Positions 1 to 54,299 of a DNA stretch of 59,794 nt are shown in pieces. Made by a program: the position numbers and the translations under genes. The DNA comes from a virus (lineage: Duplodnaviria > Caudoviricetes): positions 1 through 59,794 of IMG/VR virus record IMGVR_UViG_3300013131_004046, one strand, 5' to 3'. How positions within the stretch are numbered: the stretch's first letter is position 1; every line of letters begins with the position of its first letter. A model generated the notes under the pieces. It saw only the letters and a list, made by a program, of their open reading frames with translations. It did not search any database and was not told where the DNA came from.

Positions 1-18
1 AGCCACCGGTAAAATATT

Positions 19-41
19 AGGGACAATTAGTCCCTTTTTTT
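19..41 (+). terminator. Intrinsic terminator-like hairpin (AGGGAC-AATTA-GTCCCT followed by a T-run)
   Basis: Inverted repeat followed by T7, probably ending a + strand gene upstream of the window. Confidence 0.55.
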
Positions 42-88
42 GTGCTTAAAAAAAAATCACAACTAAACACTAAATAAATTTAACGCAT

Positions 89-120
89 AAAAAAATCCCA
101 CCATAATTAAATGATGGGAT
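89..120 (-). terminator. Probable terminator downstream of the tmRNA
   Basis: ATCCCA(C)CAT...ATG(A)TGGGAT imperfect hairpin with an A-run on the + strand (U-run on the - strand), a few nt past the tmRNA CCA end. Confidence 0.55.
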
Positions 121-124
121 CAAT

Positions 125-543
125 TGGTGGACCTAGAGGGCTCCGACTCCCTCGTCCGGATCGTTTTGTCAAAAAGACAACTACATGTTTAGGTTAAGAT
201 TTTTCATATCTTCCAAAATATTTGGTTCCTATTTTGACATTGTTACCAAAAACTGTGTCGAGTTCACTTTTGTTACGGTAGCCCTCTGAACGAGACCGTT
301 GTTTTCTTTTAGAGTGAAAACCAACTCATCTACGACTTCTGTTACTAGGTATCTGTCTGATCGACCCTCCGTTTCCGTAAACCTATTAGGCTACAGTAAC
401 TTCAGAACCTCTTAGTAAACCAAGAGTTTCCATTTTGTTTAGCACATTGCCAATTGTTGTTCGAATCAGTTTTTAACGAGTTTAATTCAGACCCGACATG
501 CTCCTTTAATCCAACCAACGCCCGTCAAATCCAATATAGGCCC
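125..543 (-). ncRNA. ssrA: tmRNA (SsrA), about 419 nt
   Basis: The minus strand starts GGGCCTATATTGGATTTGAC and ends TAGGTCCACCA. The acceptor stem GGGCCUA/UAGGUCC has a G3.U wobble, an A discriminator and an encoded CCA. T-stem GAGGG/CCCUC. Internal tag ORF ends in TAA TAG. Confidence 0.93.
383..451 (-). other. tmRNA tag reading frame, (A)GNVLNKMETLGLLRGSEVTVA**
   Basis: Resume codon GGC follows ACAATT after the first pseudoknot region; 21 codons, then tandem stops. The resume position is inferred. Confidence 0.75.
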
Positions 544-577
544 ATATATCTTAAATGACTATTTTCAAAGAACTTAA

Positions 578-604
578 TATAAATACAAATATAAAAATAT
601 TTAT
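578..604. promoter_or_regulatory. Divergent promoter region: minus-strand TATATTTG (Bacteroidota -7-like) and TATTTAT for the tmRNA; plus-strand TATTTAT for ORF 610
   Basis: CAAATATA at 586-593, ATAAATA at 579-585, TATTTAT at 598-604. Confidence 0.5.
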
Positions 605-609
605 TTGAT

Positions 610-1632
610 ATGCCAAGTGAAACTTTTGAATATCTTAAGGATTTTTATAAAAATGATGCACATTTTTCACTCATCAATAACCCTGATCCCAATATTGATT
701 ATATAAGAAAAAAAGGGAAAAATGTACTCCAATCTGAGGTCTATTTGGTTTTTGATAATACCGAGTTTTTAAATATTTTGGGTGTTACTGATGAAGAAGA
801 TCAATGGTATTATTCAAGATTTATGGATAATTATTCTTATTATGATATTGATTATTATAGATATGAAGAAGATTTTCGAGAAGGTTATATAATTGATGGG
901 TCAAATGATGAGAATAAAAGAATTTTTGACAAAATTAAAAAATACATCCAAACCGATCAAAATGTGTATCAATTTTTAGAAATGAAATATAGTAGGGAAG
1001 TTGATAATATTATTGAATCGTATGCAAGAGAATCCACCGAATGTATTCATAGAGAAGTTCGACGAATTATGGAATCGGAAACAAAAAATCCATTCAGAAA
1101 TTTTGGAATTATTGAGGTCTATCATGGTTATAAATTTAAAACAACTTTGGGTCACTTGTTCAGATTATATAAAACTGTTGGTGATTATGACTTTGGTATA
1201 TATGGTTTGATGGTATCTTTGGTGGAAAAATTTATGTCAAACTTTGACGTAGGTAATTGGTCAGAATTAGAATATAATGTTTGGTGTGGTGATTATAATC
1301 ATGATGGTGTAAATTCTGAAATTAAAGAAAACCTTGAAAAGATTTTGGAAGATCTAACAGAAAACGTATCACCTGAATATGATGATTTATTAAATTATGT
1401 CTTAGGTCATGGTGGGTTTGGAAGAACTATACAAACTTCAGTTCCAAACCGAAATGTTATTTTTGATAAAATGATAAATGATGAAAACCCAAGATTAGTT
1501 CTTAGAGTTCTTAAAAATAATGGACTATCAAGTGAAAGAAGAAGTGTTAAAAATTTAGAAGAATTATATTTAATTCTAAATCAACCTGAATTATTCGAGA
1601 GTATAAAAAAAACATTGAGAAAACTTTTGTAA
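610..1632 (+). CDS. Hypothetical protein (340 aa, acidic), C-terminal LFESIKKTLRKLL motif
   Basis: Long ORF with a TATTTAT motif 5 nt upstream; no recognisable domain. Confidence 0.75.
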   Translation: MPSETFEYLKDFYKNDAHFSLINNPDPNIDYIRKKGKNVLQSEVYLVFDNTEFLNILGVTDEEDQWYYSRFMDNYSYYDIDYYRYEEDFREGYIIDGSNDENKRIFDKIKKYIQTDQNVYQFLEMKYSREVDNIIESYARESTECIHREVRRIMESETKNPFRNFGIIEVYHGYKFKTTLGHLFRLYKTVGDYDFGIYGLMVSLVEKFMSNFDVGNWSELEYNVWCGDYNHDGVNSEIKENLEKILEDLTENVSPEYDDLLNYVLGHGGFGRTIQTSVPNRNVIFDKMINDENPRLVLRVLKNNGLSSERRSVKNLEELYLILNQPELFESIKKTLRKLL

Positions 1633-1656
1633 ATTAGTAAAAGTTTATTATCTTTG
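1626..1656 (+). promoter_or_regulatory. Bacteroidota-type housekeeping promoter (-33 TTTG, 19-nt spacer, -7 TATCTTTG)
   Basis: TTTG at 1626-1629 and TATCTTTG at 1649-1656 match the TTTG-N19-21-TAnnTTTG consensus; ATG follows 5 nt later. Confidence 0.6.
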
Positions 1657-1661
1657 TTAAT

Positions 1662-2447
1662 ATGGAAAGAAATCTAAATTTTTTAAAAGAAGTATTATCA
1701 ATCCCTTCTAAAACTTATAAAGAAGAAATTTTAGTACAATTTATTGTTGATTGGTTAACTGAAAATAAAATTCCTTTTTTTGTTGATGACATGTATAATG
1801 TTTATGCAACAAAAAAAACTGATGAATCTGTTTCTTATTTTCCTTGTGTCATAAGTCACACAGATACAGTTCACGAAATTGATACAATAAACGTTGTGGA
1901 GGAAACTTTACCAAATGCTCAGGGTGAACTAAAATTAGCCCTTAAAGCATATAATAACGATGGTAACCCAACAGGTATTGGGGGTGACGATAAATGTGGG
2001 GTTTTTGCTTGTTTGGAATTACTCAAGGAATTACCAAATTTAAAGGCCGCATTTTTTGTATCTGAAGAAGTAGGTTGTATTGGGTCGTTTCAAGCGGACC
2101 ATAAATTTTTCTCGAATGTCGGTTATTGCATTCAATTCGATTGTCCCGAAAACAACATGATTTCAGAGTATCTGATGGGGTTGCCAATGTTCACCAGAGA
2201 TTCAGAGTTTTTCGAAGTGGGTTCTAAACTTATAACAGAAAGTTTTCCAAAAGATTTGAAGTATCAAAAACACCCGTACACAGACATTTTTCCTTTGAGA
2301 AAAAATTTCAATTTATCTTGTTATAATGTTTCTATTGGTTATTATCAATATCACACAAAAAACGAGTATGTTGTTGTTGAAGACACTTTTAACGGAATAG
2401 AATTGGGAAAAAAATTAATCAATCAGTTGGGATATAAAAAGTATTAA
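1662..2447 (+). CDS. M20/M28/M42-family zinc metallopeptidase-like protein
   Basis: SHTDTV, GGDDKCG, SEEVGCIGS and a C-terminal YH metal-ligand motif. Confidence 0.8.
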   Translation: MERNLNFLKEVLSIPSKTYKEEILVQFIVDWLTENKIPFFVDDMYNVYATKKTDESVSYFPCVISHTDTVHEIDTINVVEETLPNAQGELKLALKAYNNDGNPTGIGGDDKCGVFACLELLKELPNLKAAFFVSEEVGCIGSFQADHKFFSNVGYCIQFDCPENNMISEYLMGLPMFTRDSEFFEVGSKLITESFPKDLKYQKHPYTDIFPLRKNFNLSCYNVSIGYYQYHTKNEYVVVEDTFNGIELGKKLINQLGYKKY

Positions 2448-2472
2448 AAAAGGGGTTTTAAACCCCTTTTTT
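2446..2472. terminator. Bidirectional intrinsic terminator between the convergent peptidase and clpC genes
   Basis: AAAAAAGGGGTTT-TA-AACCCCTTTTTT, with A- and T-runs on both sides. Confidence 0.7.
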
Positions 2473-4485
2473 TCTTTTTTTTTCTTTTTTTTCTTTGATC
2501 TTGATTTGATCTTCTTCAACGTATAAATTATAACCAACATTTTCGATAACCTCATCAGTTAAAATTTTCTCAGAAATTAAATCTTCAATTTTATCTTGGA
2601 TCGCTCTTTTAATTGGTCTGGCTCCAAAAGTTTCATCAAAGCCAACTTTAGAAATCAAATTAACAACTGAGTCATCATAAGTAAAATTATAATTTTTTTG
2701 TTTAACTCTTTGAAGTAGAATGTCAATTTCTAATTTAGTAATTTTATCAATGTGTTCTTTTTGTAAACTGTTAAAAAACACAACGTCATCAATACGGTTC
2801 AAGAATTCAGGAGCAAAAAACTTATTCAGCTCTTTTTTCAAAACATCTCGTCTGTATTCCTCTTTAACGGCATCACTTGAATTACTTTTAAAACCAACGC
2901 CAGTCCCAAAATCCTGTAATTTTTTAACCCCAATATTAGAAGTCATAATTATCAAACAATTTTTAAAATTAATTTTTCTCCCCAATGAGTCAGTTATATG
3001 ACCATCATCCAACATTTGAAGTAGCGTTGAAAAGATATCTTTATTTGCCTTTTCAATCTCATCAAATAACACAACGGAATATGGTTTATTTTTTACTTGT
3101 TCTGTTAATTGACCTCCTTCGTCATGACCAACATAACCTGGAGGAGATCCGATTAATCGAGAAATTGTGTGTTTTTCTTGGTATTCACTCATATCAACTC
3201 TAATCAAACTATCCTCACTACCAAATATTTCTTTTGCCAACTGTTTTGCCAAAAAGGTTTTTCCAACACCAGTCGAACCCAAAAATATAAAAGATCCAAT
3301 TGGTTTGTTTGGGTCTTTAATTCCTATACGATTTCTTCTAATTGCTTTTGCAATTTTTAAAACCGCATTTTCTTGTCCAATTACTTTATTATTCAAGTTA
3401 TCTGATAAGTTAATTAAAGAATTTTTTTCGTCTAAGTTTATCTTTGAGACAGGTATCTTTGTCATATTTGATACCACTTCATATACTAATTCTTCAGGAA
3501 TTTCTCGTTTACTTGTTTTTAGGAATTCCTCAAACTTTTTCTTTTCATCTTCCAATTTTGACAAAACCCCACGCTCGCGGTCTCTGAGTTCTGCGGCTTG
3601 TTCATAATTTTGTCTTTTAATAACTTCCATTTTTTCTTTTTTAATTTCTTGGGCCTCAAGTTTCAAATTCTCAATTACTTCAGGTAATTTAATGTCAATT
3701 TGCATTCTTGACCCAACCTCATCTAAGATATCAAATGCTTTATCAGGAAATTCTCTGTCAGTTATATACCTGTCTGCTAACTCCACAAACAATTTTAAAG
3801 TGTTTTCATCGTAAAAAACCTTGTGATGGTTTTCATATTTTTCTTTACTTTGTTTCAATATTTCTAAAGTTTCTTCTTTTGATGAAGGATCTACAATAAT
3901 TTTTTGAAACCTCCTTTCTAAAGCCCCGTCTTTTTCAAAACTCTTTCTATATTCATCCAAGGTTGTTGCCCCAATACATTGTATCTCTCCTCTTGAAAGT
4001 GCTGGTTTGAAAATGTTTGAAGCGTCCAATGAACCTGAAGTATTTCCCGCCCCTACCATGTTATGAATTTCATCTATAAAAATAATAATGTTAGGGGATG
4101 CGGTAATCTCCTCAATTATTACTTTCATACGCTCTTCAAACTGACCTCTGTATTTAGTACCTGCAACCAAAGAATTGATATCTAAAGAAACAATCCTTTT
4201 ATCTAATAAATTTTTTGGACAATCACCATTGTTAATCATTATTGCTAAACCCTCAACAATAGCCGTTTTACCGGCACCTGGCTCACCAATTATTATAGGG
4301 TTGTTTTTTTTTCTTCTAGATAAAATTTGAGCTATCCTATAAATTTCTTTTTTTCTTCCAATTACAGAATCCAATTTACCTTGTTCTGCAAGTTTATTTA
4401 AATCTTTACTAAAATTGTCTAAGACAGGTGTTCCACTGTCAGTTTTCTTTTTATTTTTTTCGCTATCGTCTAAGGATTCTATCAT
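2458..4485 (-). CDS. clpC: ClpC/ClpA-type AAA+ unfoldase lacking the N-terminal domain
   Basis: Two AAA modules (GEPGAGKT, KYRGQFEER, IFIDEIH; GSTGVGKT, GYVG, LFDEIEK), a UVR-like M-domain (YEQAAELRD) and a ClpP-docking loop VGF. Confidence 0.92.
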   Translation of the reverse strand: MIESLDDSEKNKKKTDSGTPVLDNFSKDLNKLAEQGKLDSVIGRKKEIYRIAQILSRRKKNNPIIIGEPGAGKTAIVEGLAIMINNGDCPKNLLDKRIVSLDINSLVAGTKYRGQFEERMKVIIEEITASPNIIIFIDEIHNMVGAGNTSGSLDASNIFKPALSRGEIQCIGATTLDEYRKSFEKDGALERRFQKIIVDPSSKEETLEILKQSKEKYENHHKVFYDENTLKLFVELADRYITDREFPDKAFDILDEVGSRMQIDIKLPEVIENLKLEAQEIKKEKMEVIKRQNYEQAAELRDRERGVLSKLEDEKKKFEEFLKTSKREIPEELVYEVVSNMTKIPVSKINLDEKNSLINLSDNLNNKVIGQENAVLKIAKAIRRNRIGIKDPNKPIGSFIFLGSTGVGKTFLAKQLAKEIFGSEDSLIRVDMSEYQEKHTISRLIGSPPGYVGHDEGGQLTEQVKNKPYSVVLFDEIEKANKDIFSTLLQMLDDGHITDSLGRKINFKNCLIIMTSNIGVKKLQDFGTGVGFKSNSSDAVKEEYRRDVLKKELNKFFAPEFLNRIDDVVFFNSLQKEHIDKITKLEIDILLQRVKQKNYNFTYDDSVVNLISKVGFDETFGARPIKRAIQDKIEDLISEKILTDEVIENVGYNLYVEEDQIKIKEKKEKKRKKGV

Positions 4486-4532
4486 TTGTTTTTTTTATTA
4501 ATGGTAAAAAAAGATTTCAAAAAAGTCCATAA

Positions 4533-4616
4533 TTGACATTATGTCAAAACTTAAAGTTTACAAACTGACAAAATGTCAGTATTTTTCATTTGGCATATTT
4601 TTCGGGTAATTTGGCA
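4533..4616. promoter_or_regulatory. Operator-like palindromes TGACA-N3-TGTCA (x2) and TTGGCA (x2) in the divergent clpC/dnaK intergenic region
   Basis: TTGACATTATGTCAA at 4533-4547, ACTGACAAAATGTCAGT at 4564-4580, TTGGCA at 4590 and 4611. Confidence 0.6.
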
Positions 4617-4751
4617 CAAAATAAACTTTATTAAATTAATTAAATATGTTAAATTAAATCGAATTAATAGTTTTTAATAGAATAGATAACAAAACTATGA
4701 TTCAAAATAATCAAAAATTAATAATAAACTAAACAAAAATAAAAAACAAAA

Positions 4752-6608
4752 ATGGGAAAAATAATTGGAATTGATTTAGGAACTACTAACTCGTGTGTTG
4801 CGGTAATGGAAGGTAAGGAACCTGTGGTAATTGCTAACAGTGAAGGTAAAAGAACTACACCTTCTATAGTTGGTTTTATAAAAGATGGTGAAAGAAAAAT
4901 TGGCGATCCCGCAAAAAGACAAGCGGTAACCAATCCAGATAAAACTGTATATTCGATCAAAAGATTTATGGGTAGTTCATTCGATGAAATTAAAAATGAA
5001 ACGGGAAAAGTCCCTTATAAAGTAGTCAAAGAAAAAAATTCACCAAGAGTGAAAATTGATGAAAGAACATACTCTCCACAAGAAATTTCTGCGGCAATTC
5101 TCCAAAAAATGAAACAAACGGCTGAGGACTATTTAGGTCAGTCAGTTACTGAAGCGGTGATCACAGTACCTGCTTACTTCAACGACGCCCAAAGACAGGC
5201 AACTAAAGAGGCGGGTGAAATTGCTGGTCTATCAGTTAAAAGAATTATCAATGAACCAACTGCCGCGGCATTGGCATATGGTTTAGATAAAATGTCAAAA
5301 GATATGAAAATTGTTGTGTTTGACTGTGGTGGTGGTACTCATGATGTTTCTGTCTTAGAACTTGGTGATGGTGTATTTGAAGTTTTATCTACCGATGGAG
5401 ATACTCATTTAGGGGGTGATGATTTTGACCAAGCTTTGATCGACTACTTAATATCGGAGTTCAAAAGAGAAAATGGTATGGATATATCTAAAGACCCAAT
5501 GGCACTTCAGAGATTACGTGAAGCGGCAGAAAAGGCTAAAATTGAGTTGTCATCTTCACCTCAAACAGAAATTAACTTACCTTATGTGACTGCGGATGCC
5601 ACAGGCCCTAAACACCTTGTAATGACAATTACTAAATCTAAATTTGATCAGTTGACACAATCTTTGGTTGATAGGACAATTAAACCATGTGAATCGGCAC
5701 TTAAAAATGCAGGATTAAAACCAAGTGATATCGATGAAATTATTTTAGTTGGTGGATCTACACGCATCCCCTCTATTCAAGAAGCTGTTAAAAAGTTCTT
5801 CGGTAAAGAACCATCAAAAGGTGTAAACCCTGATGAGGTTGTTGCTTTGGGTGCCGCAATACAAGGTGGTGTTTTAGCTGGTGATGTGACTGATGTTTTA
5901 TTATTAGATGTAACACCACTTTCATTGGGTATTGAAACTATGGGTGGTGTATTCACTAAACTTATAGACGCAAACACAACAATACCAACAAAAAAATCAG
6001 AAACATTTTCTACAGCGTCTGATAACCAACCATCAGTAGAGATTCATGTCTTACAGGGTGAAAGACCAATGTCAAAAGACAATAGAACTATTGGTAGATT
6101 TCATTTGGAAGGTTTACCTCCCGCTCGAAGAGGAGTTCCTCAAATTGAGGTAATTTTTGATATTGATGCAAATGGAATAATAAATGTGTCTGCGGTTGAT
6201 AAAGCTACAAATAAACAACAATCAATAAGAATTGAATCTTCTTCAGGTTTATCAAAAGAAGAAGTTGAGAGAATGAGACAAGAAGCTGAAATGAATGCAG
6301 AAACCGATAAAAAATTGAGGGAGGATGCCGACACTTTAAATTCTGCAGATTCTTTAATTTTCCAAGTCGAAAAAAGTTTGGTAGATTTAGAAGGAAAAAT
6401 AAGCGATTCTGAAAAATCAGACATTGTGTCAAAAGTAGAAAATTTAAAATCTAACTACCAAAAAAGAGACATCTCAGAAGTCAAAAAAAGTATTGATGAA
6501 GTTAATGCCAAATTCCAAGAGATCAGTCAAAAACTATACGAATCAACTATGAATCAAGAAGTGAGTGATGAAGATTTCTCAAATGTTGATTTTGAAGAAG
6601 TAAAATAA
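4752..6608 (+). CDS. dnaK: Chaperone DnaK (Hsp70)
   Basis: [35 protein letters not shown]-like, VGGSTRIP and linker [16 protein letters not shown]. Confidence 0.98.
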
Positions 6609-6687: not shown

Positions 6688-6930
6688 ATGTCAATTACAA
6701 GAGAAGAAATTTTAGGTACCAAAATTCTAAATGAAATAGAATCGTCTAACTTAGTAAGAACAGAATATGATACTCTATCGAAAAAAATGATTGCGGAGTT
6801 TAAAAACGGAACAAGATACGAATATGAAAATGTTCCTCACGAAAAATATACCCAATTTAGATTATCAGAATCTCAAGGTAACTTTTTTAATAAAAACATT
6901 TCAAAAAGTTATAAATACAAGAAACTTTAA
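6688..6930 (+). CDS. KTSC domain protein
   Basis: SSNL...YD......EFKNG..YEYENVP...Y..F..SESQGNFFNKNI matches the KTSC signature. Confidence 0.88.
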   Translation: MSITREEILGTKILNEIESSNLVRTEYDTLSKKMIAEFKNGTRYEYENVPHEKYTQFRLSESQGNFFNKNISKSYKYKKL

Positions 6931-21687: not shown

Positions 21688-21719
21688 AAAAAAAGGTCAG
21701 AGAAATCTGACCTTTTTTT
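21688..21719. terminator. Bidirectional intrinsic terminator after the major capsid gene
   Basis: AAAAAAAGGTCAGA-GAAA-TCTGACCTTTTTTT, perfect stem with a GNRA loop. Confidence 0.85.
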
Positions 21720-21942
21720 ATTTTACAACATCTTCTTTTAATAAAACCCTTATAGATTTGGAAATCACTTCAGTTTCACCCATAGTATAACATCCTTTAC
21801 TGTACGCGAACTTTATAGATTCTATCAAATAAAACAAAGACAGATCTTTATCCATTGTTGCCAAAATTAATTCTAAATGTTCTTCAGTTTCTAAATTTAT
21901 AGAATTGAATAATGTACCATATATTTTTTTTTGATTGTCCAT
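21718..21942 (-). CDS. Hypothetical protein
   Basis: 74-aa ORF filling the gap. Confidence 0.65.
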   Translation of the reverse strand: MDNQKKIYGTLFNSINLETEEHLELILATMDKDLSLFYLIESIKFAYSKGCYTMGETEVISKSIRVLLKEDVVK

Positions 21943-30324: not shown

Positions 30325-31074
30325 TTATTTATATATTTCAGAAATTATTTCTTGGTAAAGTTTCTTATATTTTTTAAGAGAAACTCGTATTTCTTTGGTA
30401 GACAAATTAGTCATTTCTCTTATTTCAAAAAGTATAACATTTTTGTTAAATTTGTTATTACTACTTGCATCTATAAAAATGGAATTATAATTTTCAAATA
30501 TGTCTACTAAAGCTTCTCCCAATCTATATTCTTGTTCTGTCACATTAGTTTCCTCAATCATTTCACTTAGCTTACTCAAAAACTTTTTAATAACTTCTTC
30601 AGTAGACACAACATCATTATCGATGTGGTATATCATATCTGGAGTATTTAATAAATCCGAGGAAATATCTTCATAGGATATTTTCCGATTCATTTCTTTT
30701 TGATCTTTAAGAATTTGACCCATAAGATAGTTTTTACAAATGGTACCAAAGTAAGAATATGCCTTCTTTTCTTTGGCCGGTTTGAACTTGTCAATTTTGG
30801 TCATTAAAAACGAATGTGTGTCGATATGAATTTCATCAAAATTCATATCCTTTCTGTATAACTTATATCGTCGTATAATTGACGATATCATTTTATCTAA
30901 AGGGTCTTTTAGAAATTCATTATAGATCTTATTTTTTTCATCGAAAGTAGTTGCCGATAGATATAATCTTACGGCAACTTCCTCTCGTTCATCAAAATAT
31001 TTGTTTTCTTTAGCTTTTCTCCCTTTCTTTTTCTTTTCACTCGGTTGATCTTGTATGTTAGTTTCTAAAATCAT
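30325..31074 (-). CDS. Sigma-factor-like protein (possible gp55-like late sigma)
   Basis: Region-2-like KIDKFKP...KAYSYFGTICKNYL and a C-terminal helix-turn-helix-like REMTNLSTKEIR. Confidence 0.55.
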   Translation of the reverse strand: MILETNIQDQPSEKKKKGRKAKENKYFDEREEVAVRLYLSATTFDEKNKIYNEFLKDPLDKMISSIIRRYKLYRKDMNFDEIHIDTHSFLMTKIDKFKPAKEKKAYSYFGTICKNYLMGQILKDQKEMNRKISYEDISSDLLNTPDMIYHIDNDVVSTEEVIKKFLSKLSEMIEETNVTEQEYRLGEALVDIFENYNSIFIDASSNNKFNKNVILFEIREMTNLSTKEIRVSLKKYKKLYQEIISEIYK

Positions 31075-31877
31075 TAAACCTCTTGAGGTTCATAATTTAT
31101 TTCTCTAAGATTTGTGTAGAAATATTCTTTCTTTGCAGATTCAACCCAGAATTTAACTTCATCTGGAGTTAACTTATTTTCCCCATTTTTGTAATTCCAA
31201 AAAATAGATCCTTCTCTCATGTTTGTGTGTTTGTATCCAATTTTAGGTATAGTTAATACTTTATGACCGTTTGTCAACCTCAATAAGAATTCATAACCAA
31301 AAGTAAGTTTAATATTTCCTTTTAACCCACCTATATTTTCAAAAACATCTTTTTTAATTACCATTCCCGAAATTTGGAAATTTTGATAATTTAAAAGAGT
31401 TTCTGTTGATAGATACCCCATTTCTTGCGAAATGTTGGATGCAAATGTTGCCTCATTTGTGAAACCAACAAAAACACCCATGTCGTTAGTATCAACAACA
31501 ATTGGTAAGAATGCGCTTATATCATTATAAATATCTGAATACTTATGAACATTCCTAAACCAAATATTGGAATACTCATCATCAAATTCATAAAAAGAAA
31601 CAAAATCAGAAGTCGCAATTTTTACTCCTTGATTAATTTGGTTGCAGAAATTTGGTTCTTTGGTCCACAATTCTTTAACCACATTTATATTTCCAAAATC
31701 GTAAGAATTTAAAAAATTAACTAATTCGGTTTCATCTGTGTGAACTATAACTAATTCATTGTATTGATCTGTCTGTGCTGATAATGACACAATACATTTG
31801 TCAAAATACTCTTTAAATGTTGTTGGTTTACCAGACCTAATTGGTAAAATAACTGATATTGATTTTTTTTGTTCCAT
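31074..31877 (-). CDS. GT-A fold (GT2-like) glycosyltransferase
   Basis: ISVILP N-terminus, N.G, EFDDEY (DxD-like), F..IGG. Confidence 0.75.
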   Translation of the reverse strand: MEQKKSISVILPIRSGKPTTFKEYFDKCIVSLSAQTDQYNELVIVHTDETELVNFLNSYDFGNINVVKELWTKEPNFCNQINQGVKIATSDFVSFYEFDDEYSNIWFRNVHKYSDIYNDISAFLPIVVDTNDMGVFVGFTNEATFASNISQEMGYLSTETLLNYQNFQISGMVIKKDVFENIGGLKGNIKLTFGYEFLLRLTNGHKVLTIPKIGYKHTNMREGSIFWNYKNGENKLTPDEVKFWVESAKKEYFYTNLREINYEPQEV

Positions 31878-32941
31878 TATTCTTCTATTGTTTGAAATTT
31901 ATTTAATTGTGATTCAAAGTTTGTAGTTCTTGTTACAAAAATTTCTGTGAATAACTTTTCTACCTCTTCTACAAAATTTTCTTTTGTTTGTTGTTCTTTA
32001 ATTGTCTTTTCCATTTCAGAATATAAATCAGGACTAATGTTGTCTTCTAACCAATTCTGAATGAAATCTGCTAAAACGTCAACAATCATTAGTTGGTTAT
32101 TTACCCATATACCATTGTTTTCGTTCATCCAATCAGGAACTAAATTTGGTGTCAATCCTACAACAGGAACACCCATACTAAATGACTCAAGAGGGAATGT
32201 ACCAAAACCACTAATTTCGTCTACCCATACTGAAACAAAACTATCTTTTATTCCATCAGCAAATTCTTTTTCTGAAAGACCTCTTAGGTCTCTGAAAGTA
32301 ATCCATCGATATTGCGGGTATTTTGAATAAAAAGTTTTAACTAAATTAGTTGTATCTCTTTGATCTCTAGTGTGGATTGTTACAATTGTTTTTGGAGGCA
32401 TCGTTTGTTTTTCAAAAGTTTCAGAAATGTATGGTCTAATTACATCATAAGATAAGTTTCTTACAACTGATTGGATATACTCTTTTTGTTTTTCACTTGT
32501 TGTAATACATTTGAAGAATCCTAAAAGTGGCCAACTTTGTCCTGGGTTTAAGGTTTCAAAAATGTAATCATAGGACTGACAAAGTACTATTTTTCCACAT
32601 GGTAAATTCATTATTTGATCCATAACAAAACCATAAATTTCAGGCACAATAATTAAATCATCAGGAGATACTTCTAAGTTAGTACCCTCAATAGCTGAAT
32701 GAGGTAATTCGTCCATGTAACTTTGACCTAACCAATTTGAAACCCCGAAATAATCAGGTTTTTCGTGTAACATTGTAGGATTATATCCTTTGTCTTTTAA
32801 CGCCATAGCCATTTGATAAATGTAACGTAAGGATGCTTTTGCATTTCCTTTTGTGTCTTGCACAATGAAATAAATTCTTGATTGTTTATTTTTCATTCTC
32901 AAGATTGAATCTTCTAATTTTTTGATTTGATTGTTATCCAT
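31877..32941 (-). CDS. GT-B fold (GT4-like) glycosyltransferase
   Basis: DLIIVPE and SGFGTFPLESFSMGVPVVG (E-x7-E-like region). Confidence 0.7.
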   Translation of the reverse strand: MDNNQIKKLEDSILRMKNKQSRIYFIVQDTKGNAKASLRYIYQMAMALKDKGYNPTMLHEKPDYFGVSNWLGQSYMDELPHSAIEGTNLEVSPDDLIIVPEIYGFVMDQIMNLPCGKIVLCQSYDYIFETLNPGQSWPLLGFFKCITTSEKQKEYIQSVVRNLSYDVIRPYISETFEKQTMPPKTIVTIHTRDQRDTTNLVKTFYSKYPQYRWITFRDLRGLSEKEFADGIKDSFVSVWVDEISGFGTFPLESFSMGVPVVGLTPNLVPDWMNENNGIWVNNQLMIVDVLADFIQNWLEDNISPDLYSEMEKTIKEQQTKENFVEEVEKLFTEIFVTRTTNFESQLNKFQTIEE

Positions 32942-32946
32942 AAAAT

Positions 32947-33201
32947 TTAATATTTATTTATTATTTTTTTATTTAGTAATGTATTAAACGCAAGTTTAAA
33001 AGACGGTGTTAATGCGGATGATTTTAAACCTAGAGTGTCATCTATGTTTTCCGCTTCAGTTAAAATTGTTTCTAACATAAATTTAACTGTTTCATATTTA
33101 ATTAAATGAATTTGAGTTTCCCCTGTTGTTTCCTTTAATTCGCATTCATCAACTATTTTATCTAAGTCGATGTAGTAGTTTTCATTAAAAATTGTAAACA
33201 T
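32947..33201 (-). CDS. Hypothetical protein (start probably MFTIFNENYY)
   Basis: Short ORF within the operon. Confidence 0.65.
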   Translation of the reverse strand: MFTIFNENYYIDLDKIVDECELKETTGETQIHLIKYETVKFMLETILTEAENIDDTLGLKSSALTPSFKLAFNTLLNKKIINKY

Positions 33202-33847
33202 TAGTAATTTCTTCAATTGTTTTTTCTAAATCTGATAAACTTTCAATCTCAAATTCAGAACTCACATGTTTATTGTAATCAGTTTTGAATTTTATCAAAA
33301 CTTTTCCGTTTGGTTTGTTTAATAATAAATCAGGATTAGCCGTAAGTAAAATGTCAATTTTGTCCCACATCAATTTTTTTGTTACTTGACTATAAAAAAA
33401 TACTTCCTCAACAAGACAACCAAACTTGGAAAGAAAAAATAAAGAAGATGGTTTAGATTTACCGATCTCATCTGATACTATTTTAATTTCAAAATTATCT
33501 CTATGTTTATAATAAAATTCATTTAAAATCAAAAAAGTGTTCATTTCCGTAGATTGGGCATGCCCAAATAATTCCATGGTATATTCCTCATACATAAAAG
33601 AGTACAAATCCTCTTTAGTTGGAAAAGTAAAATGATCGAGTAAATCTAAAGAAGTTACTTCACTTTTTATTTCATATTTGAAATTTGTTGTTAATATCGC
33701 TTCATTTAAATTACCATCATCATCAATGTTGTAAATTTGATTTTGTGAGTCAACATCTTGGGACTCAATCAAATTTTTTTCATAGAGTTGTTTAAACTTT
33801 GAAATAGTATCCCTCAAAACCCCATTAATTTCTATACCAAGTTTCAT
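33185..33847 (-). CDS. HAD-like 5'(3')-deoxyribonucleotidase homologue with a degenerate motif I
   Basis: LGIEINGVLRD (cf. IGIDIDGVL), DILL.., F..DYNK. Confidence 0.6.
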   Translation of the reverse strand: MKLGIEINGVLRDTISKFKQLYEKNLIESQDVDSQNQIYNIDDDGNLNEAILTTNFKYEIKSEVTSLDLLDHFTFPTKEDLYSFMYEEYTMELFGHAQSTEMNTFLILNEFYYKHRDNFEIKIVSDEIGKSKPSSLFFLSKFGCLVEEVFFYSQVTKKLMWDKIDILLTANPDLLLNKPNGKVLIKFKTDYNKHVSSEFEIESLSDLEKTIEEITNVYNF

Positions 33848-33850
33848 ATC

Positions 33851-34570
33851 TTACTCGTCGTATTTTTTCAGAATTTTAGTTATCAAAGGATTTCTAACCA
33901 CATCATTTTGATTAAATTCAAAAGTTGAAATGTCATTCATAAAATTAAATCTTGTTATTGCATCGTATAAACCAGATTGTTTTATATCTTTATATCTGTC
34001 AGTTTGTTCTAAATCTCCTGAGATAAAGAACTTACTGTTGAACCCAATTCTTGTTAGTAATAACTTCATTTGATTCGGAGTTGAGTTTTGAGCTTCCTCA
34101 AAAATTAAAATTGAATTATCAATATTCATACCTCTCATATACGCCAATGCAAACACCTCAACCACTTCAATATCTTTTAATTTTTCTCTTGCTTCCTTAC
34201 CAATAATTTTGTTTAGAAGATAATATGAAGGGAAGATATACGGGTCTAATTTTTCTTCCAAGTTTCCTGGTAATGCTCCTAATTTTTCTTCCGCCTCTAC
34301 GGCTGGTCTAACAATAATTATTTTTTCATAACCATTTGATGTATCTGTCAATAAATCAACAGCGGCTTTCATTGCAATATAACTTTTACCAACACCAGCA
34401 GGACCTGAACATATAGTAATTTGATTACTAATTAATTTTTGATAGTACTCTCTTTGATTGTCCGTAAGAAATTTATTTTTTTGTTTCTTTTTGATTATGG
34501 AATTTATGAGGTCTTTTTTTGTTTGATGACTAATTTGATTTTCCTCATGGGCAACTTTTTTTCTATTCAT
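33851..34570 (-). CDS. phoH: PhoH-like ATPase
   Basis: GPAGVGKS, RPAVEAEEKLGALPG, LAYMRG, EEAQN, LLTRIG, GDLEQTD, VVRNPLI. Confidence 0.95.
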   Translation of the reverse strand: MNRKKVAHEENQISHQTKKDLINSIIKKKQKNKFLTDNQREYYQKLISNQITICSGPAGVGKSYIAMKAAVDLLTDTSNGYEKIIIVRPAVEAEEKLGALPGNLEEKLDPYIFPSYYLLNKIIGKEAREKLKDIEVVEVFALAYMRGMNIDNSILIFEEAQNSTPNQMKLLLTRIGFNSKFFISGDLEQTDRYKDIKQSGLYDAITRFNFMNDISTFEFNQNDVVRNPLITKILKKYDE

Positions 34571-34638
34571 TTAATAAATGTTAAGTTTTATTTTTTATAA
34601 CTTAAAATAAAAATTTAAAAAGAAAATCTTTTTGTCCT

Positions 34639-35268
34639 TTATACATTACCTCCACCGGATTGTGGGACGTAAATTAAAATTTCATTTATGTATTTTTTTT
34701 TGGGTATTGTATCCCATAATTTTTTTACCACTCGAAAATCCGAGCATTTCCATGAGTCCCAATTAGCAAAACTTTTGTACTTATTGTGAAATGTAAAACA
34801 AGGAGATCCTATAAAATTTTTTACAGGACCATTTCTTATGTCGTTTTTCTTTGGTACTACAAATCCATTGGAAAATTTCATAGCCCAAATTATTAAAGTG
34901 TCTTCATCTGAATTTTGTATTTCATTAGAAATTATTTGAAGGGAATTTTCAGAAATAAATTTGTCGTCATCGTCAAGATACATTATCCATCCGTCATTAA
35001 CTTTTTCTTGTAGAAAATTCATATATAAATTATATGGTGCAAAAGGACCGGTTTTTGGATCTTTACTAATTGGTTCAGCTAATAATTTTTCTTTATCGAT
35101 TAGATAAGAATTTTTTATTTTTAGTTCCTCGACATATTTGAGCGTCTCATTGTTATCAGAGCAAACCAAGTGGTTAAAATCTGAACATGATTGTGATTTT
35201 AAATTTTGAATTAACTCTGTAAAAGATTTTTCTCTATTTGAGGTTCTTGTCAAAATATTTATCATCAA
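34639..35268 (-). CDS. GT2-like glycosyltransferase
   Basis: INILTRTSNR, WIMYLDDDD. Confidence 0.75.
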   Translation of the reverse strand: MMINILTRTSNREKSFTELIQNLKSQSCSDFNHLVCSDNNETLKYVEELKIKNSYLIDKEKLLAEPISKDPKTGPFAPYNLYMNFLQEKVNDGWIMYLDDDDKFISENSLQIISNEIQNSDEDTLIIWAMKFSNGFVVPKKNDIRNGPVKNFIGSPCFTFHNKYKSFANWDSWKCSDFRVVKKLWDTIPKKKYINEILIYVPQSGGGNV

Positions 35269-36779
35269 GCTAACGGAATTAATCTATCTTTTATTTTTTC
35301 AAAATTTTTAATGGCAAAAGGTACTAAATTGTTTACGTAATCAAAATGTAATTTTTTTAATTTTGTATCTTCTAAATCTCTTGTTTTAGATTCATAATGA
35401 TATGCAACACAATTACTACACGTAAAATTTTTAAAACCATTCATCAAAACAGTTGCATTCAATTCAACATCCTCAAAACAAGAGGTATAATTTTGATTGA
35501 ACATTCCTAAATTTATAAAAACATTTTTTCGAATCATAAGTAATGCTGCGGTGTTTCCAAAACTTTCTTTTGTTGACAAACTGTAATTATAATAAGACCT
35601 AATACTATGATGACCCACACCTAACTGGTTAGTGTTTTTATGAACTCCCATAAAGATTCCATCATGTTGAACAGTGTTGTCTTCAAAATGTAAACGAGCA
35701 CCAACAGTTCCGGCTTTCACATTATTTTCAAATACAGATAACATTCCTGTGATAACATCATTCAAAACTACGACATCATTATTACAAAAAAGTAAAAATG
35801 TGTAATCATCATTAACGTGTCTTTTAACCACATGATTGTTTATTTTTGAAAAATTATAATAATCGTACTCAATGAACTTTACGTTTATTTTGTTTGTCAA
35901 ATAATCTCTTATTTCTTTTTTTTCTTTTTCTGTTGATCCAGTATCGGCAACAAAAATATCAAAAACAGCACTGTCACAATTTTTGTAAAAAGAATCAATA
36001 CAATTTTTTAAAAGATCTACGTTACCTTTAGTTGGTATAATAATAGCAACTTTACCAAATTTTTTAAACTTTTTAGTTTTTATTTCAGGTACATATATGG
36101 TTTCAGGTTTTAAATCCAATGGTAAAAATTTACCAAACTTATTCAGAAACTCTTCTTTAGTTTCATAAAATTCTTTGTTGGGCTCGCCTATAGAGTTATG
36201 TGTAATCTCAAATGAAAAAGTAACACCAATTTTAACACCTTCCAAATAATTTGACAAAGAAAAACAATGGTCGTAAAAATGGAATCTACCTATTGTTTCA
36301 TCAAATAAATGTTTTATTTTATTTTTATTAAATGATATAAATAACCCATCCACGGTAACAACAGGAACAACAAAAGGGAATTTTGCCGAATATTTATTTA
36401 ACCATTTTTTATTTTTTTCAGGATTGTGATAAACATGACCAACCATTGTCTCTGACATTTTTTCCCAATAGATCCCTGAAGATGATAAATAAGAAGACCC
36501 CGCTTTTCCAATTACACCAAATTCGGGGTAATTAGAAAAATCATTCAAAAGTTTTTTACCCCAGTTTTTTTCTAACTTTATATCGTTGTGACAACAAACA
36601 ACTATTTCGTATTTAGATTCTGTTATCCCACTATTATAAACCTCTGCAAGCGAAAATTCATTGTTATTGAGATACTCCAAAATCTGTACATCTTTTATTC
36701 CTACGGTAGACAAAAGATGTGACCTAAAATTTTTATTGTATTCTTGATCTCTATGTGTTGAGTAAATTATTGTAATCAT
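35265..36779 (-). CDS. Two-domain glycosyltransferase (Glyco_transf_2_5-like + GT2)
   Basis: CHNDI, VDGLF, FHFYD; second domain IIIPT, DTGS, NNDV, FEDVELN, HYES. Confidence 0.8.
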   Translation of the reverse strand: MITIIYSTHRDQEYNKNFRSHLLSTVGIKDVQILEYLNNNEFSLAEVYNSGITESKYEIVVCCHNDIKLEKNWGKKLLNDFSNYPEFGVIGKAGSSYLSSSGIYWEKMSETMVGHVYHNPEKNKKWLNKYSAKFPFVVPVVTVDGLFISFNKNKIKHLFDETIGRFHFYDHCFSLSNYLEGVKIGVTFSFEITHNSIGEPNKEFYETKEEFLNKFGKFLPLDLKPETIYVPEIKTKKFKKFGKVAIIIPTKGNVDLLKNCIDSFYKNCDSAVFDIFVADTGSTEKEKKEIRDYLTNKINVKFIEYDYYNFSKINNHVVKRHVNDDYTFLLFCNNDVVVLNDVITGMLSVFENNVKAGTVGARLHFEDNTVQHDGIFMGVHKNTNQLGVGHHSIRSYYNYSLSTKESFGNTAALLMIRKNVFINLGMFNQNYTSCFEDVELNATVLMNGFKNFTCSNCVAYHYESKTRDLEDTKLKKLHFDYVNNLVPFAIKNFEKIKDRLIPLA

Positions 36780-37471
36780 TTTAATTTATCTAAAAACCCT
36801 TCATTGTTATCGTATAATCTATTGATTTCTTGTTCGTCAGTATAGTAATGCCAACTTAATTTCATTTTTATATTTTCTTCAGATAATCTTTCTGCAAATT
36901 TTTTATACCTATCAATTGTATATCTTTTTCCCAAAAATTTATAGTGAAACATATCATAATTTTTGCAAAATTTTAAGACACCAACTGGATTAGATTTGTG
37001 ACAACCATAATTGTAGTTTATTTCTTCAATTTTTTTTCTATTAAAAAGTAAAATTTTATCATAGTTTTCATCATGCCATCCATAAGATATATTTTCTAAA
37101 TCATCATCATTAAAATTCATTAAATTATATCCATTGAATTTAAAAATAGTACATTCATTTTTTTCTTCTTTTTTCAATTGTTCTTCGTTAATTTGAATTA
37201 ACTCATCACAATCACATACAACTACCCATTCAGTTTCAGAATCTTTCCAACAACTATTTTTTATCTCAATCAGTTTTATATCTGAAAATTTATTATTAGT
37301 ATCATAAAATATAACTGTACACCCAAATGATTTTGCAATCTCTACAGTTTTATCTGTTGAATAATTATCAAATATTACAATTTTACAGTTTGGGAAATTT
37401 TTTCTATAATGATTTATAAAAAATTCAATGAATAATTCTTCGTTATATGTAATTGTATAAACTGTAACCAT
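36776..37471 (-). CDS. GT2-like glycosyltransferase
   Basis: YNEE, DNYSTDKT, WVVVCDCDE. Confidence 0.8.
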   Translation of the reverse strand: MVTVYTITYNEELFIEFFINHYRKNFPNCKIVIFDNYSTDKTVEIAKSFGCTVIFYDTNNKFSDIKLIEIKNSCWKDSETEWVVVCDCDELIQINEEQLKKEEKNECTIFKFNGYNLMNFNDDDLENISYGWHDENYDKILLFNRKKIEEINYNYGCHKSNPVGVLKFCKNYDMFHYKFLGKRYTIDRYKKFAERLSEENIKMKLSWHYYTDEQEINRLYDNNEGFLDKLK

Positions 37472-45794: not shown

Positions 45795-45906
45795 TTTTTT
45801 GAGTTAGAGATTGAGTTTAAATTCAGATAGTTCGAAATCCATAATAATTAGATGATTTTTTCTAAATATTTTTTATTATTCTATAAAAAAACAAAACTAT
45901 CTATTG

Positions 45907-49335: not shown

Positions 49336-49336
49336 A

Positions 49337-52123
49337 TTAGAGTTGTACCCAGAAATTATCAGGGTCAAATCTTATTACAACCACATCTGTATTATTATAA
49401 AGGTTATGTCCAATAAGTCTAACATATTGTCCTGAAGCTGTCGGTGCAGTTTCAGTAACATTACCCGTTGTTGGTGAAATGTATAGTGGTAATCCAGGAA
49501 TTGATGTTCCTAATTGGTCATGTTTTATTGTCGATATTTGACCTTCTAAAAGAACCGGTAATACTGTTTGCTCTGCTCCCGTATTATTTAAACATATACC
49601 AAGTAGATTTGTCGAATTAGCGGCAAAGTCAGCGTCCGCTTGTTCCCAAGCCCCATTTCTCATGACTAATAATTCACCAGCATTGACGTTATTACCCCCA
49701 ACTTGTTGATTTGTAAGTATCGTACCATTGTAATATCCTGTCGTCCAATTAGTATCCAATTGAATTCCATTATTTACTGAAGTTACTCCTTCATCATTTA
49801 CATGTCCCCACCCTGATAAACTTCCATCTCCTCCACCATAAAAAGTATTACCCCCTCTCCATGAAAGTTGTGCAGAATTTCCGTTAATCGAAGTAGCTCC
49901 AACTAATGTCAAACCAAAACCATTAAAAGTTAAATTAGTTTCGGATGTAATTCCCCCCGAACCATCAGAAGTCAAAACCTCATTGTCCAACCCACCAACT
50001 GTTGGTGAAACACCGCTAGTCCCATCAGTACCTGATGTTCCTGCCTGTGACATTAACGCCCAATTACTACTAAAAGGAGGTGTTGGTATTCCAGTATTTC
50101 CATTTATCAATGAAACATAAGAACTACCATTAAATTCAACAACATCATTTATGTTGTAAGTTGACATTAGATTCCAAGAACCACTCCAATTGAACGAAAT
50201 ACCACTACTACCTGATGTACCATCCGTTCCACTAGTCCCTGAAGAACCATCTGTACCACTTGTGCCTGAACTACCACTTGTGCCTGACGTTCCGCTAGTT
50301 CCTGAAGTTCCATCTGTTCCACTTGTTCCTGAAGTCCCCGAACTACCACTTGTACCATTTGTTCCTGAGGTTCCGCTTGTTCCCGATGAGCCACTAGTTC
50401 CTGAAGTACCACTGAACCCTGAAGATCCACTTGATCCTGATGTTCCATCGGTACCGCTAGTACCTGAAGTTCCGCTTGAACCTGAACTTCCCGATGTACC
50501 ACTTGATCCTGATGTTCCGTCTGTACCTGAAGTACCACTTGTCCCGTCAGTACCCGATGTTCCCGAAGATCCTGAAGTACCGCTCGACCCTGAACTACCA
50601 CTAGTTCCATCTGTTCCGCTAGTTCCTGAAGATCCACTAGTACCATCTGTACCGCTAGTCCCTGAAGAACCACTAGTACCATCTGTTCCTGATGTACCAC
50701 TTGTACCTGATGTACCATCGGTACCTGAAGTACCGCTAGATCCTGATGTTCCACTTGATCCTGAAGAACCACTAGTACCATCTGTTCCGCTTGTTCCTGA
50801 ACTTCCACTTGATCCTGATGTTCCACTTGTTCCTGAAGTTCCATCTGTTCCGCTAGTTCCTGAACTACCACTTGTGCCTGACGTTCCGCTAGTTCCTGAT
50901 GTTCCTGAACTTCCGCTTGTACCGCTTGATCCTGAAGTTCCATCTGTACCTGAAGTACCGCTTGATCCTGATGAACCGCTCGATCCCGAAGTCCCGTCTG
51001 TTCCGCTAGTTCCTGAACTACCACTTGTGCCTGACGTTCCACTTGTTCCTGATGTTCCTGAACTTCCGCTTGTACCGCTTGATCCTGATGAACCGCTCGA
51101 TCCCGAAGTCCCGTCTGTTCCGCTAGTTCCTGAACTACCACTTGTGCCTGACGTTCCGCTAGTTCCTGATGTTCCTGAACTTCCGCTTGTACCTGAACTT
51201 CCACTTGAGCCAGATGTTCCTGAAGTACCCGAACTTCCACTAGTTCCATCAGTACCTGATGTTCCGCTAGTCCCTGAAGAACCTGAAGTTCCACTCGACC
51301 CTGATGTCCCGTCAGTACCACTTGTCCCTGAGCTACCGCTAGTACCACTTGTGCCTGACGTTCCACTTGTTCCTGATGTTCCTGAACTTCCGCTTGTACC
51401 GCTTGATCCTGAAGAACCTGAAGTTCCATCTGTTCCGCTAGTTCCTGAACTACCACTTGTGCCTGACGTTCCGCTAGTTCCTGAAGTTCCATCTGTACCT
51501 GAAGTACCGCTTGATCCTGATGAACCGCTTGTTCCACTAGTCCCGCTCGATCCCGAAGTCCCGTCTGTTCCACTTGTTCCTGATGAACCACTAGTCCCAT
51601 CCGTTCCACTAGTACCTGAAGAACCTGATGTTCCATCAGTCCCCGAAGTACCATCTATACCACTTGTTCCGTCTGTTCCTGAACTACCATTTGTACCACT
51701 AGTCCCATTGGTACCTGAAGATCCACTCGACCCACTAGTACCCGAAGTTCCGCTTGTTCCCGATGTTCCATTCGTTCCGTTAGTTCCTGATGTTCCATCC
51801 GTCCCGTCTGTTCCTGAAGTCCCACTTGTTCCCGATGTTCCTGTAGAACCGCTCGATCCACTAAAACTTATTTGAGTCCAATCAGTTATTGTGAGTGTCC
51901 ATGGAGGAGCATTTAATTTATAGTAGTCAGTCCCACCACTCACACCAACTAACATTCCTGATCGTCTTCGTAAAGTGGGGATCGAATCCAAATCTGTAAG
52001 AGTATCAACGTTTCTTAACCCATCGATTCCATAGAGAGGGTCAATTACTGGATATTGATCTGTAATTTCCGTTGGTGATATAAAACCAATAACCTCAACT
52101 CCACCTGATAAACTAAAACTCAT
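49337..52123 (-). CDS. Fibre-like protein with about 550 aa of Gly-(Thr/Ser)-(Ser/Asp/Asn) triplet repeat
   Basis: Unique N- and C-terminal domains flank an uninterrupted G-X-Y register; a W....Y..NDVV..NGSSY module follows the repeat. Confidence 0.85.
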   Translation of the reverse strand: MSFSLSGGVEVIGFISPTEITDQYPVIDPLYGIDGLRNVDTLTDLDSIPTLRRRSGMLVGVSGGTDYYKLNAPPWTLTITDWTQISFSGSSGSTGTSGTSGTSGTDGTDGTSGTNGTNGTSGTSGTSGTSGSSGSSGTNGTSGTNGSSGTDGTSGIDGTSGTDGTSGSSGTSGTDGTSGSSGTSGTDGTSGSSGTSGTSGSSGSSGTSGTDGTSGTSGTSGTSGSSGTSGTDGTSGSSGSSGTSGSSGTSGTSGTSGTSGTSGSSGTSGTDGTSGSSGTSGSSGTSGTSGTDGTSGSSGTSGTSGSSGSSGTSGSSGTSGTSGTSGTSGSSGTSGTDGTSGSSGSSGSSGTSGSSGTSGTSGTSGTSGSSGTSGTDGTSGSSGSSGSSGTSGTDGTSGSSGTSGSSGTSGTSGTSGTSGSSGTSGTDGTSGTSGTSGSSGSSGTSGTDGTSGSSGSSGTSGSSGTSGTDGTSGTSGTSGTDGTSGSSGTSGTDGTSGSSGTSGTDGTSGSSGSSGTSGSSGTSGTDGTSGTSGTDGTSGSSGTSGSSGSSGTSGTSGTDGTSGSSGSSGFSGTSGTSGSSGTSGTSGTNGTSGSSGTSGTSGTDGTSGTSGTSGTSGSSGTSGTDGSSGTSGTDGTSGSSGISFNWSGSWNLMSTYNINDVVEFNGSSYVSLINGNTGIPTPPFSSNWALMSQAGTSGTDGTSGVSPTVGGLDNEVLTSDGSGGITSETNLTFNGFGLTLVGATSINGNSAQLSWRGGNTFYGGGDGSLSGWGHVNDEGVTSVNNGIQLDTNWTTGYYNGTILTNQQVGGNNVNAGELLVMRNGAWEQADADFAANSTNLLGICLNNTGAEQTVLPVLLEGQISTIKHDQLGTSIPGLPLYISPTTGNVTETAPTASGQYVRLIGHNLYNNTDVVVIRFDPDNFWVQL
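50201..51862 (-). repeat. 9-bp-period coding repeat (about 184 Gly-X-Y triplets) with higher-order duplications
   Basis: CC every 9 nt on the + strand; 117-bp near-identical unit at 50961 and 51078. Confidence 0.95.
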
Positions 52124-52132
52124 ATTTTATTT

Positions 52133-52987: not shown

Positions 52988-53046
52988 GTCTTTTTTTATA
53001 AATACTTTATTTTACATAACGTTATGATATTTTTTTTTAAAAAATT

Positions 53047-54294: not shown

Positions 54295-54299
54295 CTAAA

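Follow-up and report, generated by a model that had tools for sequence, protein, structure and literature searches.

A long, conserved tmRNA tag in T4-like jumbo phages, encoded near a ClpC-like unfoldase gene

The window, the whole 59.8-kb IMG/VR fragment analysed here (estimated completeness 18%), carries at 125..543 on the minus strand a one-piece tmRNA gene of 419 nt with an encoded CCA end. We consider it probable that this is a functional phage tmRNA which writes a phage-specific degron. The core of the preliminary description of this DNA has stood up: the phage tmRNA is complete, and its tag is long and differs from the host type. The tag peptide is, in addition, under selection.

The source phage and its tmRNA

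T4-type terminase, portal, prohead protease and a gp23-like capsid protein are all encoded in the window. CheckV puts five relatives, of 272-304 kb, at 93-100% completeness, hence the source is a T4-like jumbo phage of about 300 kb. Its host is likely a freshwater member of the Bacteroidota, as judged from (i) the DnaK encoded in the window, which is 69-77% identical to Bacteroidota DnaK, Bacteroidota being named in 79 of the 80 best record titles; (ii) the Flavobacterium phages found among the closest cultured relatives by capsid protein; and (iii) a TAnnTTTG motif upstream of the tmRNA. A 74-aa reverse-strand ORF located 3' of the capsid gene (21718..21942) was considered as a bS21 candidate and set aside, having neither a Pfam nor an NCBIfam match; bS21-encoding phages are known (PMC9723584), and the window phage is not assigned to that clade. 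Glycosyltransferase and sugar-chemistry genes are abundant at 30325-37471 (minus strand) and 45904-57479 (GT2, GT1, GT9, a GlcNAc transferase, HtrL/YibB and an FkbM methyltransferase), and a 928-aa protein with many collagen triple-helix repeats is encoded at 49337..52123 (minus strand).

The Rfam tmRNA model RF00023 aligns to 543..125 of the minus strand over its full length (model positions 1-374 of 374) with 78.3 bits and an E value of 1e-28, the gathering score being 47, which confirms that the gene is complete. Relatives were collected from three sources: stretches retrieved with the neighbouring ClpC-like protein as query (572 of 601 candidates confirmed, the best 80 of the 572 being used), 74 contigs containing an exact 26-mer from the tag, and more remote records searched with Rfam, of which 33 of 48 passed the cut-off. 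Pooled, these yielded 145 full-length tmRNAs, 86 of them distinct. Alignment of the 86 with MAFFT and RNAalifold revealed compensatory double changes in 29 of 37 predicted pairs, and the covarying helices comprise the acceptor stem, the long helix 2, the T-arm and two hairpins. Pseudoknots, which alifold cannot model, were considered in the Rfam alignment, where PK1 has high posterior probability and the PK2-PK4 region aligns poorly.

The acceptor stem is tRNA-Ala-like. Its 5' strand, GGGCCUA (537..543, minus strand), pairs with UAGGUCC (135..129) and includes a G3-U70 pair; direct reading and covariation place this 3' strand, the discriminator A and the CCA end at 125..135 (minus strand). At the third position of this stem 84 of the 86 aligned relatives have a G-U pair, the two exceptions being due to imprecise 5' trimming of the sequences, and acceptor pairs 4-7 covary. 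The T-arm (136..153, minus strand) is a variant: its 5-bp stem, GAGGG/CCCUC, covaries, and its loop at 148..141 is the non-canonical 8-nt AGUCGGAG and not the usual 7-nt TTCRANN. This loop, which has no U54/A58 equivalent, occurs in 16 of the 86 distinct relatives, the remaining 70 having the canonical TTCRANN. It is invariant on three different complementary stems (GAGGG, CGGGG and GUGGG), which argues that it is selected and not decayed.

ARAGORN called 0 genes in the window, a result that we count as a limitation of the tool and not as absence of the gene. Among the 86 distinct family members it detects nine, all with the canonical loop (9 of 70; none of the 16 that have the 8-nt loop is detected), and the tag is wrong in two of these nine. 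Since most of this family is missed, ARAGORN-based censuses of phage tmRNAs (PMC7162821 and PMC9004378, according to the excerpts of them available) probably under-count such genes.

Putative long-tag tmRNAs were also seen outside this family. Among GenBank phages, the one whose capsid protein is closest (39% identity), the uncultured 484-kb LR756508.1, has a 72-bit tmRNA at 92434-92880, in which a putative tag of 36 residues ending in PAAV can be read in frame from '...auaacu/GGC' in this single sequence; ARAGORN calls a different tag of 8 residues. A single strict and narrow pattern for the 8-nt loop, used to look for bacteria with this loop in tmRNAs of their own, gave one match, on a 28-kb contig in a Desulfobacteraceae-labelled MAG: a 79.9-bit tmRNA with the same 8-nt T-loop and a putative tag of about 29 residues. 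It is a second copy, a canonical tmRNA of 184.7 bits being located on another contig of this MAG. The 28-kb contig has, in addition, genes for an M29 aminopeptidase and for an ATPase of the Clp D2 type, which is 647 aa long, carries an IGF loop and is 40% identical to the D2 module of the window protein. Most ORFs of the contig are without a family match; it may be a phage contig with an analogous trio of tmRNA, unfoldase and peptidase. This unrelated contig hints that such a module recurs.

The tag peptide and its reading frame

The tag frame occupies 389..451 on the minus strand, consists of 21 codons starting at the resume codon GGC (451-449), and is closed by a double stop, TAA TAG (383..388, minus strand). 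The full tag written is (A)GNVLNKMETLGLLRGSEVTVA, that is, alanine plus 21 residues. Translation of 451..383 reproduces exactly the peptide and the two stops first read from this DNA, including the TVA end, and the resume codon consensus of the Rfam alignment falls on the same GGC. Besides this alignment, the frame is supported by an A at -4 from the resume codon, by the Bacteroidota-like context of GGC and by selection at the codon level. The A at -4 (455, minus strand), found in 86 of 86 distinct relatives, is the equivalent of E. coli A86, which sets the tag frame in that organism, according to the part of the report accessible to us (PMC2481249). The resume context '...aacu/GGC AAY' is common to the phage family and the sampled Bacteroidota tmRNAs. 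ARAGORN gives the same tag frame in seven relatives.

Comparison across related phages, proposed in the preliminary description, showed that the frame is preserved in each of the 86 distinct relatives, the tag having 21 residues in 80 of them and 22 in six, with 37 distinct peptides and the consensus G-N-V-L-N-K-M-x-x-x-G-L-[ILV]-R-x-x-x-V-x-V-A. Among the 40 distinct 21-codon tag sequences G1, K6 and G11 are invariant, L12 and A21 are each kept in 39, and R14 in 38. Different synonymous codons are used for the conserved residues (Arg14: AGA 22, CGT 15, CGC 1; Leu12: TTA 30, CTT 9), and the entropies of codon positions 1, 2 and 3 (0.80, 0.46 and 1.11) make the third position the most variable. 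Pooled pN/pS is 0.50 in the tag frame versus 0.76 and 1.20 in the other two frames, a descriptive value without a test statistic, as it is pooled over phylogenetically non-independent pairs. This codon-level pattern shows that the tag peptide is under purifying selection. A short +1 frame, GCA AUG UGC UAA, was rejected as an alternative tag, because the other frames are not conserved among the relatives, the two of them containing stops in 38 and 35 of the 40 distinct sequences.

A canonical ssrA degron has about 10 residues and an LAA or MAA end; the tag of the window has 21 and ends in TVA, and none of the tags among the 86 distinct relatives ends in LAA or MAA. The C-terminal residue is Ala in 39 of the 40 distinct sequences and the penultimate one is V or A in 36 of the 40. 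The middle of the tag had been described as amphipathic-looking, an impression that was not borne out: its helical hydrophobic moment of 0.53 lies below the shuffle mean of 0.82 and is reached by 73% of the shuffles. As the moment is under the shuffle mean at both 100 and 170 degrees, the idea of an amphipathic helix was dropped.

For comparison with cellular tags we sampled 151 genomes of the phylum to which a Flavobacteriales genome belongs, of which 144 have a tmRNA over the cut-off; 54 loci were fetched in all (4 + 30 + 20) and their tags were called by ARAGORN. In agreement with the background on cellular tags given in the preliminary description, the tags are 8-10 residues long in 54 of 54, end in LAA or MAA in 53 and start with G in 23, GENNYALAA occurring eight times. 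The T-loop is the canonical TTCRANN in all 54. The Rfam score of the phage tmRNA is 78 bits, while the 144 cellular tmRNAs that pass the cut-off in this sample score 93-198 bits. Beyond its first one or two residues, the phage tag bears no relation to the GENNYALAA-type tag, of 9 residues, that the host phylum uses. We also scanned one genome of each of 185,579 species with a degenerate motif of the main tag form and obtained a single match that is not a tmRNA; it is a chance match inside coding-like sequence, without an Rfam match. As far as the searched collections show, the tag is phage-specific, since the sampled host-phylum tags are all short and the species scan gave no tmRNA match.

Organization and expression of the locus

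The tmRNA is preceded by TATATTTG (586..593, minus strand, 42 nt upstream of the mature 5' end), a match to TAnnTTTG, which we take to be the Bacteroidota -7 promoter motif. TAnnTTTG is present within 90 nt in 73 of 80 distinct upstream regions of the relatives versus 113 of 1328 background windows of 90 nt (8.5%). Directly 3' of the CCA lies a hairpin resembling an intrinsic terminator, with 11 pairs followed by a T run (94..121, minus strand), and the tmRNAs of the relatives are also trailed by a similar hairpin and T run. Between the TAnnTTTG motif and the mature 5' end, and immediately before that end, many relatives share a conserved leader element, GTTCTTTGAAAAT (544-575, minus strand, in the window), which may act in RNA processing or as an additional promoter.

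Words sampled from positions 1-5000 of the window were found, at 6-9%, in 24 lake or freshwater RNA runs from 22 studies. These runs are available as Logan assembled contigs, which prove neither transcription nor RNA ends. Two contigs from different runs and studies are of tmRNA length, one of 409 nt covering 161-549 with one mismatch and the other of 390 nt covering 142-531 with two mismatches, and the depth over 669-1670 is zero in all four RNA runs whose contigs were placed on the window. The tmRNA-length contigs are consistent with a stable small RNA and serve as a hint of expression; beyond this hint, uncovered stretches and unequal depth among the genes carry no weight in our argument.

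Divergent from the tmRNA is an ORF of 340 aa (610..1632, plus strand) that has no Pfam, NCBIfam or PHROG match; homologues with 23-41% identity exist in 43 of the 80 related loci (best 80 of 572). It is followed by a gene for an M20/PepT-like peptidase of 261 aa (1662..2447, plus strand), assigned by phrog_4191 ('peptidase', E 3.5e-35) and scoring 24.0 bits against Pfam M20, slightly under the cut-off of 24.6. An M20-like peptidase, which lies between the tmRNA and the clpC-like gene, is present in 79 of the best 80 of 572 loci.

The clpC-like gene (2458..4485, minus strand) encodes a double-ring AAA+ unfoldase, of which residues 8-653 align in a single stretch to residues 148-791 of the 818-residue S. 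aureus ClpC (E 9.7e-211). The protein has the two AAA+ modules, the short middle domain and the [V/I]GF loop of ClpC-type Hsp100 proteins, with two intact Walker A/B pairs, KYRG and GYVG pore loops and a VGF ClpP-docking loop. It has no Clp_N Pfam match and no N-terminal Clp repeat, the adaptor-docking part; it lacks the N domain because it starts at the equivalent of ClpC residue 148. A docking loop of the form [V/I/M]GF is present in 41 of 41 relatives examined, these being the loci among the best 80 of 572 whose match starts at the standard offset.

The tmRNA and the clpC-like gene are found on the same strand, 1.95-5.8 kb apart (median 2.4 kb), in 68 of the best 80 of 572 loci. The remaining 12 end less than 6 kb downstream of the clpC-like gene, so the tmRNA is linked wherever the flank suffices. 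The two genes are not co-transcribed, because two genes of the opposite strand lie between them. DnaK (Hsp70; 4752..6608, plus strand; NF001413, 1000 bits) is present in just 5 of the best 80 of 572 loci and is therefore a late, sporadic addition to the block. In 74 of these 80 loci the clpC-like gene also has beside it a gene for an 80-aa KTSC-domain protein (6688-6930, plus strand, in the window).

Neither ClpP nor SmpB was found in the 59.8-kb window. Each is encoded in one of the five near-complete relatives, the same 296-kb genome for both, in which SmpB lies about 7.5 kb from the tmRNA. The phage ClpP that the preliminary description had presumed is accordingly missing from the window and from four of the five near-complete relatives, where the host SmpB and ClpP must serve; the lineage of the 296-kb relative, having both, has gained more of the pathway.

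Possible readers of the tag and relation to known systems

We propose that the tmRNA gene would constitute its own transcription unit, in which a promoter motif of the host type and a short leader precede the tmRNA and a terminator follows it. The RNA would be charged with alanine by the host AlaRS through its G3-U pair and delivered to the ribosome by SmpB, which would be the host's own in most relatives. It would enter the stalled ribosome, where A(-4) would set the frame, and alanine plus 21 residues would be appended. With its small hydrophobic C-terminus, mostly V-x-V-A, the tag would act as a degron that, during infection, delivers polypeptides from stalled ribosomes to an unfoldase working with ClpP. 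The foremost candidate for the reader would be the always-linked, N-domain-less phage ClpC-like ATPase docked on host ClpP, a role that we regard as possible though less likely than not, and the neighbouring M20-like peptidase may help to turn the fragments into amino acids. A phage-specific unfoldase as tag reader, suggested in the preliminary description, has circumstantial support from the clpC-like linkage and the intact motifs of the protein; an escape from host ClpXP or a redirection to another protease, also envisaged there, is conjectural. The putative ClpC and peptidase steps are drawn from linkage and precedent: ClpC1 of M. tuberculosis can unfold an SsrA-tagged protein without its N domain, and ClpA lacking this domain degrades SsrA-GFP, as stated in the consulted portion of PMC6274998. 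The linkage of tmRNA and clpC may, on the other hand, reflect only a general proteostasis island.

More tentatively, these elements could form a private pathway across the clade, in which the 22-residue degron of the phage tmRNA, orthogonal to the host GENNYALAA, is read by the N-less ClpC on host ClpP. The linked peptidase would finish the fragments, and the phage would control the fate of stalled products and recycle amino acids during infection. We regard this extended scheme as possible, though rather doubtful as a whole.

We hold it unlikely that the tag of a functional phage tmRNA is read by ordinary host proteases such as ClpXP, ClpAP, Lon or a tail-specific protease. The ClpC-like protein would then be occupied with disaggregation or remodelling, and the length of the tag would serve host adaptors or translation and release. 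The frequent Ala end (39 of 40) with its V or A penultimate residue (36 of 40) is similar to the small, hydrophobic C-termini that known ssrA tags have and could equally be readable by host ClpX, ClpA, Lon or periplasmic tail-specific protease; with nearly all variants ending in V-A, A-A or similar, a host ClpX-type reader might still suit them. The lack of ClpP in four of the five near-complete relatives and the separate transcription of the clpC-like gene point the same way, as do the long Mollicutes tags, which are read by the host protease Lon according to the available text of PMC9382460. Host readers, however, recognise a YALAA-type end, the phage tag shares nothing with the host-phylum tag past residue 2, and the tmRNA, the ClpC-like gene and the peptidase are linked in every locus long enough among the best 80 of 572. 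That the tag is not a degron at all seems improbable to us. It would then act in stabilisation or sequestration, be a signal to a phage protein, or be conserved mainly as the efficiently translated and terminated mini-ORF that ribosome rescue needs, and the internal K6, G11, L12 and R14, conserved like the C-terminus and not needed by a bare C-terminal degron, would be in keeping with this; yet the relatives retain the C-terminal Ala and a hydrophobic residue before it, genes for an unfoldase and a peptidase lie nearby, and every studied tmRNA tag acts as a degron, an established matter to judge from the passages at hand of PMC9382460 and PMC4131195.

We give very little credence to a reading in which the RNA serves as a decoy, blocks host trans-translation or is a passenger in decay, and in which tRNA-like function has been lost, as the variant T-loop would signal. 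The 8-nt loop is unlike all 54 sampled host-phylum T-loops, and a phage RNA consisting only of a TLD (DS6A) was suggested to titrate SmpB (PMC4131195, in the section seen). The variant loop is nevertheless invariant on its three compensating stems, the same sequences retain the full tag frame, A(-4), G3-U and CCA, and 70 of the 86 relatives combine a canonical loop with the same tag. The reading that we prefer is still that of a functional tmRNA with a degron of its own.

Phage tmRNAs and long tags as such are already known. The published part of the record that we could consult (PMC4131195, PMC7162821, PMC9004378) describes phage tmRNAs in Bxz1-group mycobacteriophages, Bacillus phage G, huge phages and Melnitz-like marine phages, and counts a tmRNA in 402 of 18,146 phage genomes (PMC9004378). 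The present gene is similar to these in being a complete ssrA of a lytic large phage, the function there being only speculated on; a long tag conserved across a clade and a fixed link to a ClpC-like gene are described in none of the text available from these reports. Searches of 50,697 GenBank phage records with the tmRNA (blastn) and the tag (tblastn) gave no match, and our literature search, supplementary tables aside, found no description of this tag family.

The phage RNA shares with the Bacteroidota one-piece tmRNA (RF00023) its architecture, a length of about 390-420 nt, the G3-U stem, the GGC resume codon with A at -4, a tag starting with G-N or G-E, and the Bacteroidota-type promoter motif. 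It differs in its tag, which has 21-22 instead of 8-10 residues and ends in TVA, VVA or VAA instead of YALAA, and in the 8-nt T-loop AGUCGGAG of the window, and nucleotide similarity is insignificant beyond short motifs. The tag of the Mollicutes SsrA is also two to three times as long as usual (27 residues and Lon-read in Mesoplasma florum), and there long tags go with a changed reader protease (PMC9382460, as far as the text was available). Those organisms are cells without ClpXP, whereas here the tag is phage-borne and the likely host phylum keeps short canonical tags. The N-less ClpA and ClpC1 (PMC6274998, in its accessible part) have the same double-ring Clp ATPase architecture, to which the phage protein adds the ClpP-docking loop; they are engineered truncations acting on ...YALAA tags, while the phage protein lacks the N domain naturally and has a putative substrate.

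If an orthogonal degron is indeed read by the phage unfoldase, this would be the first virus to carry the writer of a degradation signal together with its reader, and tag and unfoldase would provide a new degron/unfoldase pair for synthetic biology in Bacteroidota.
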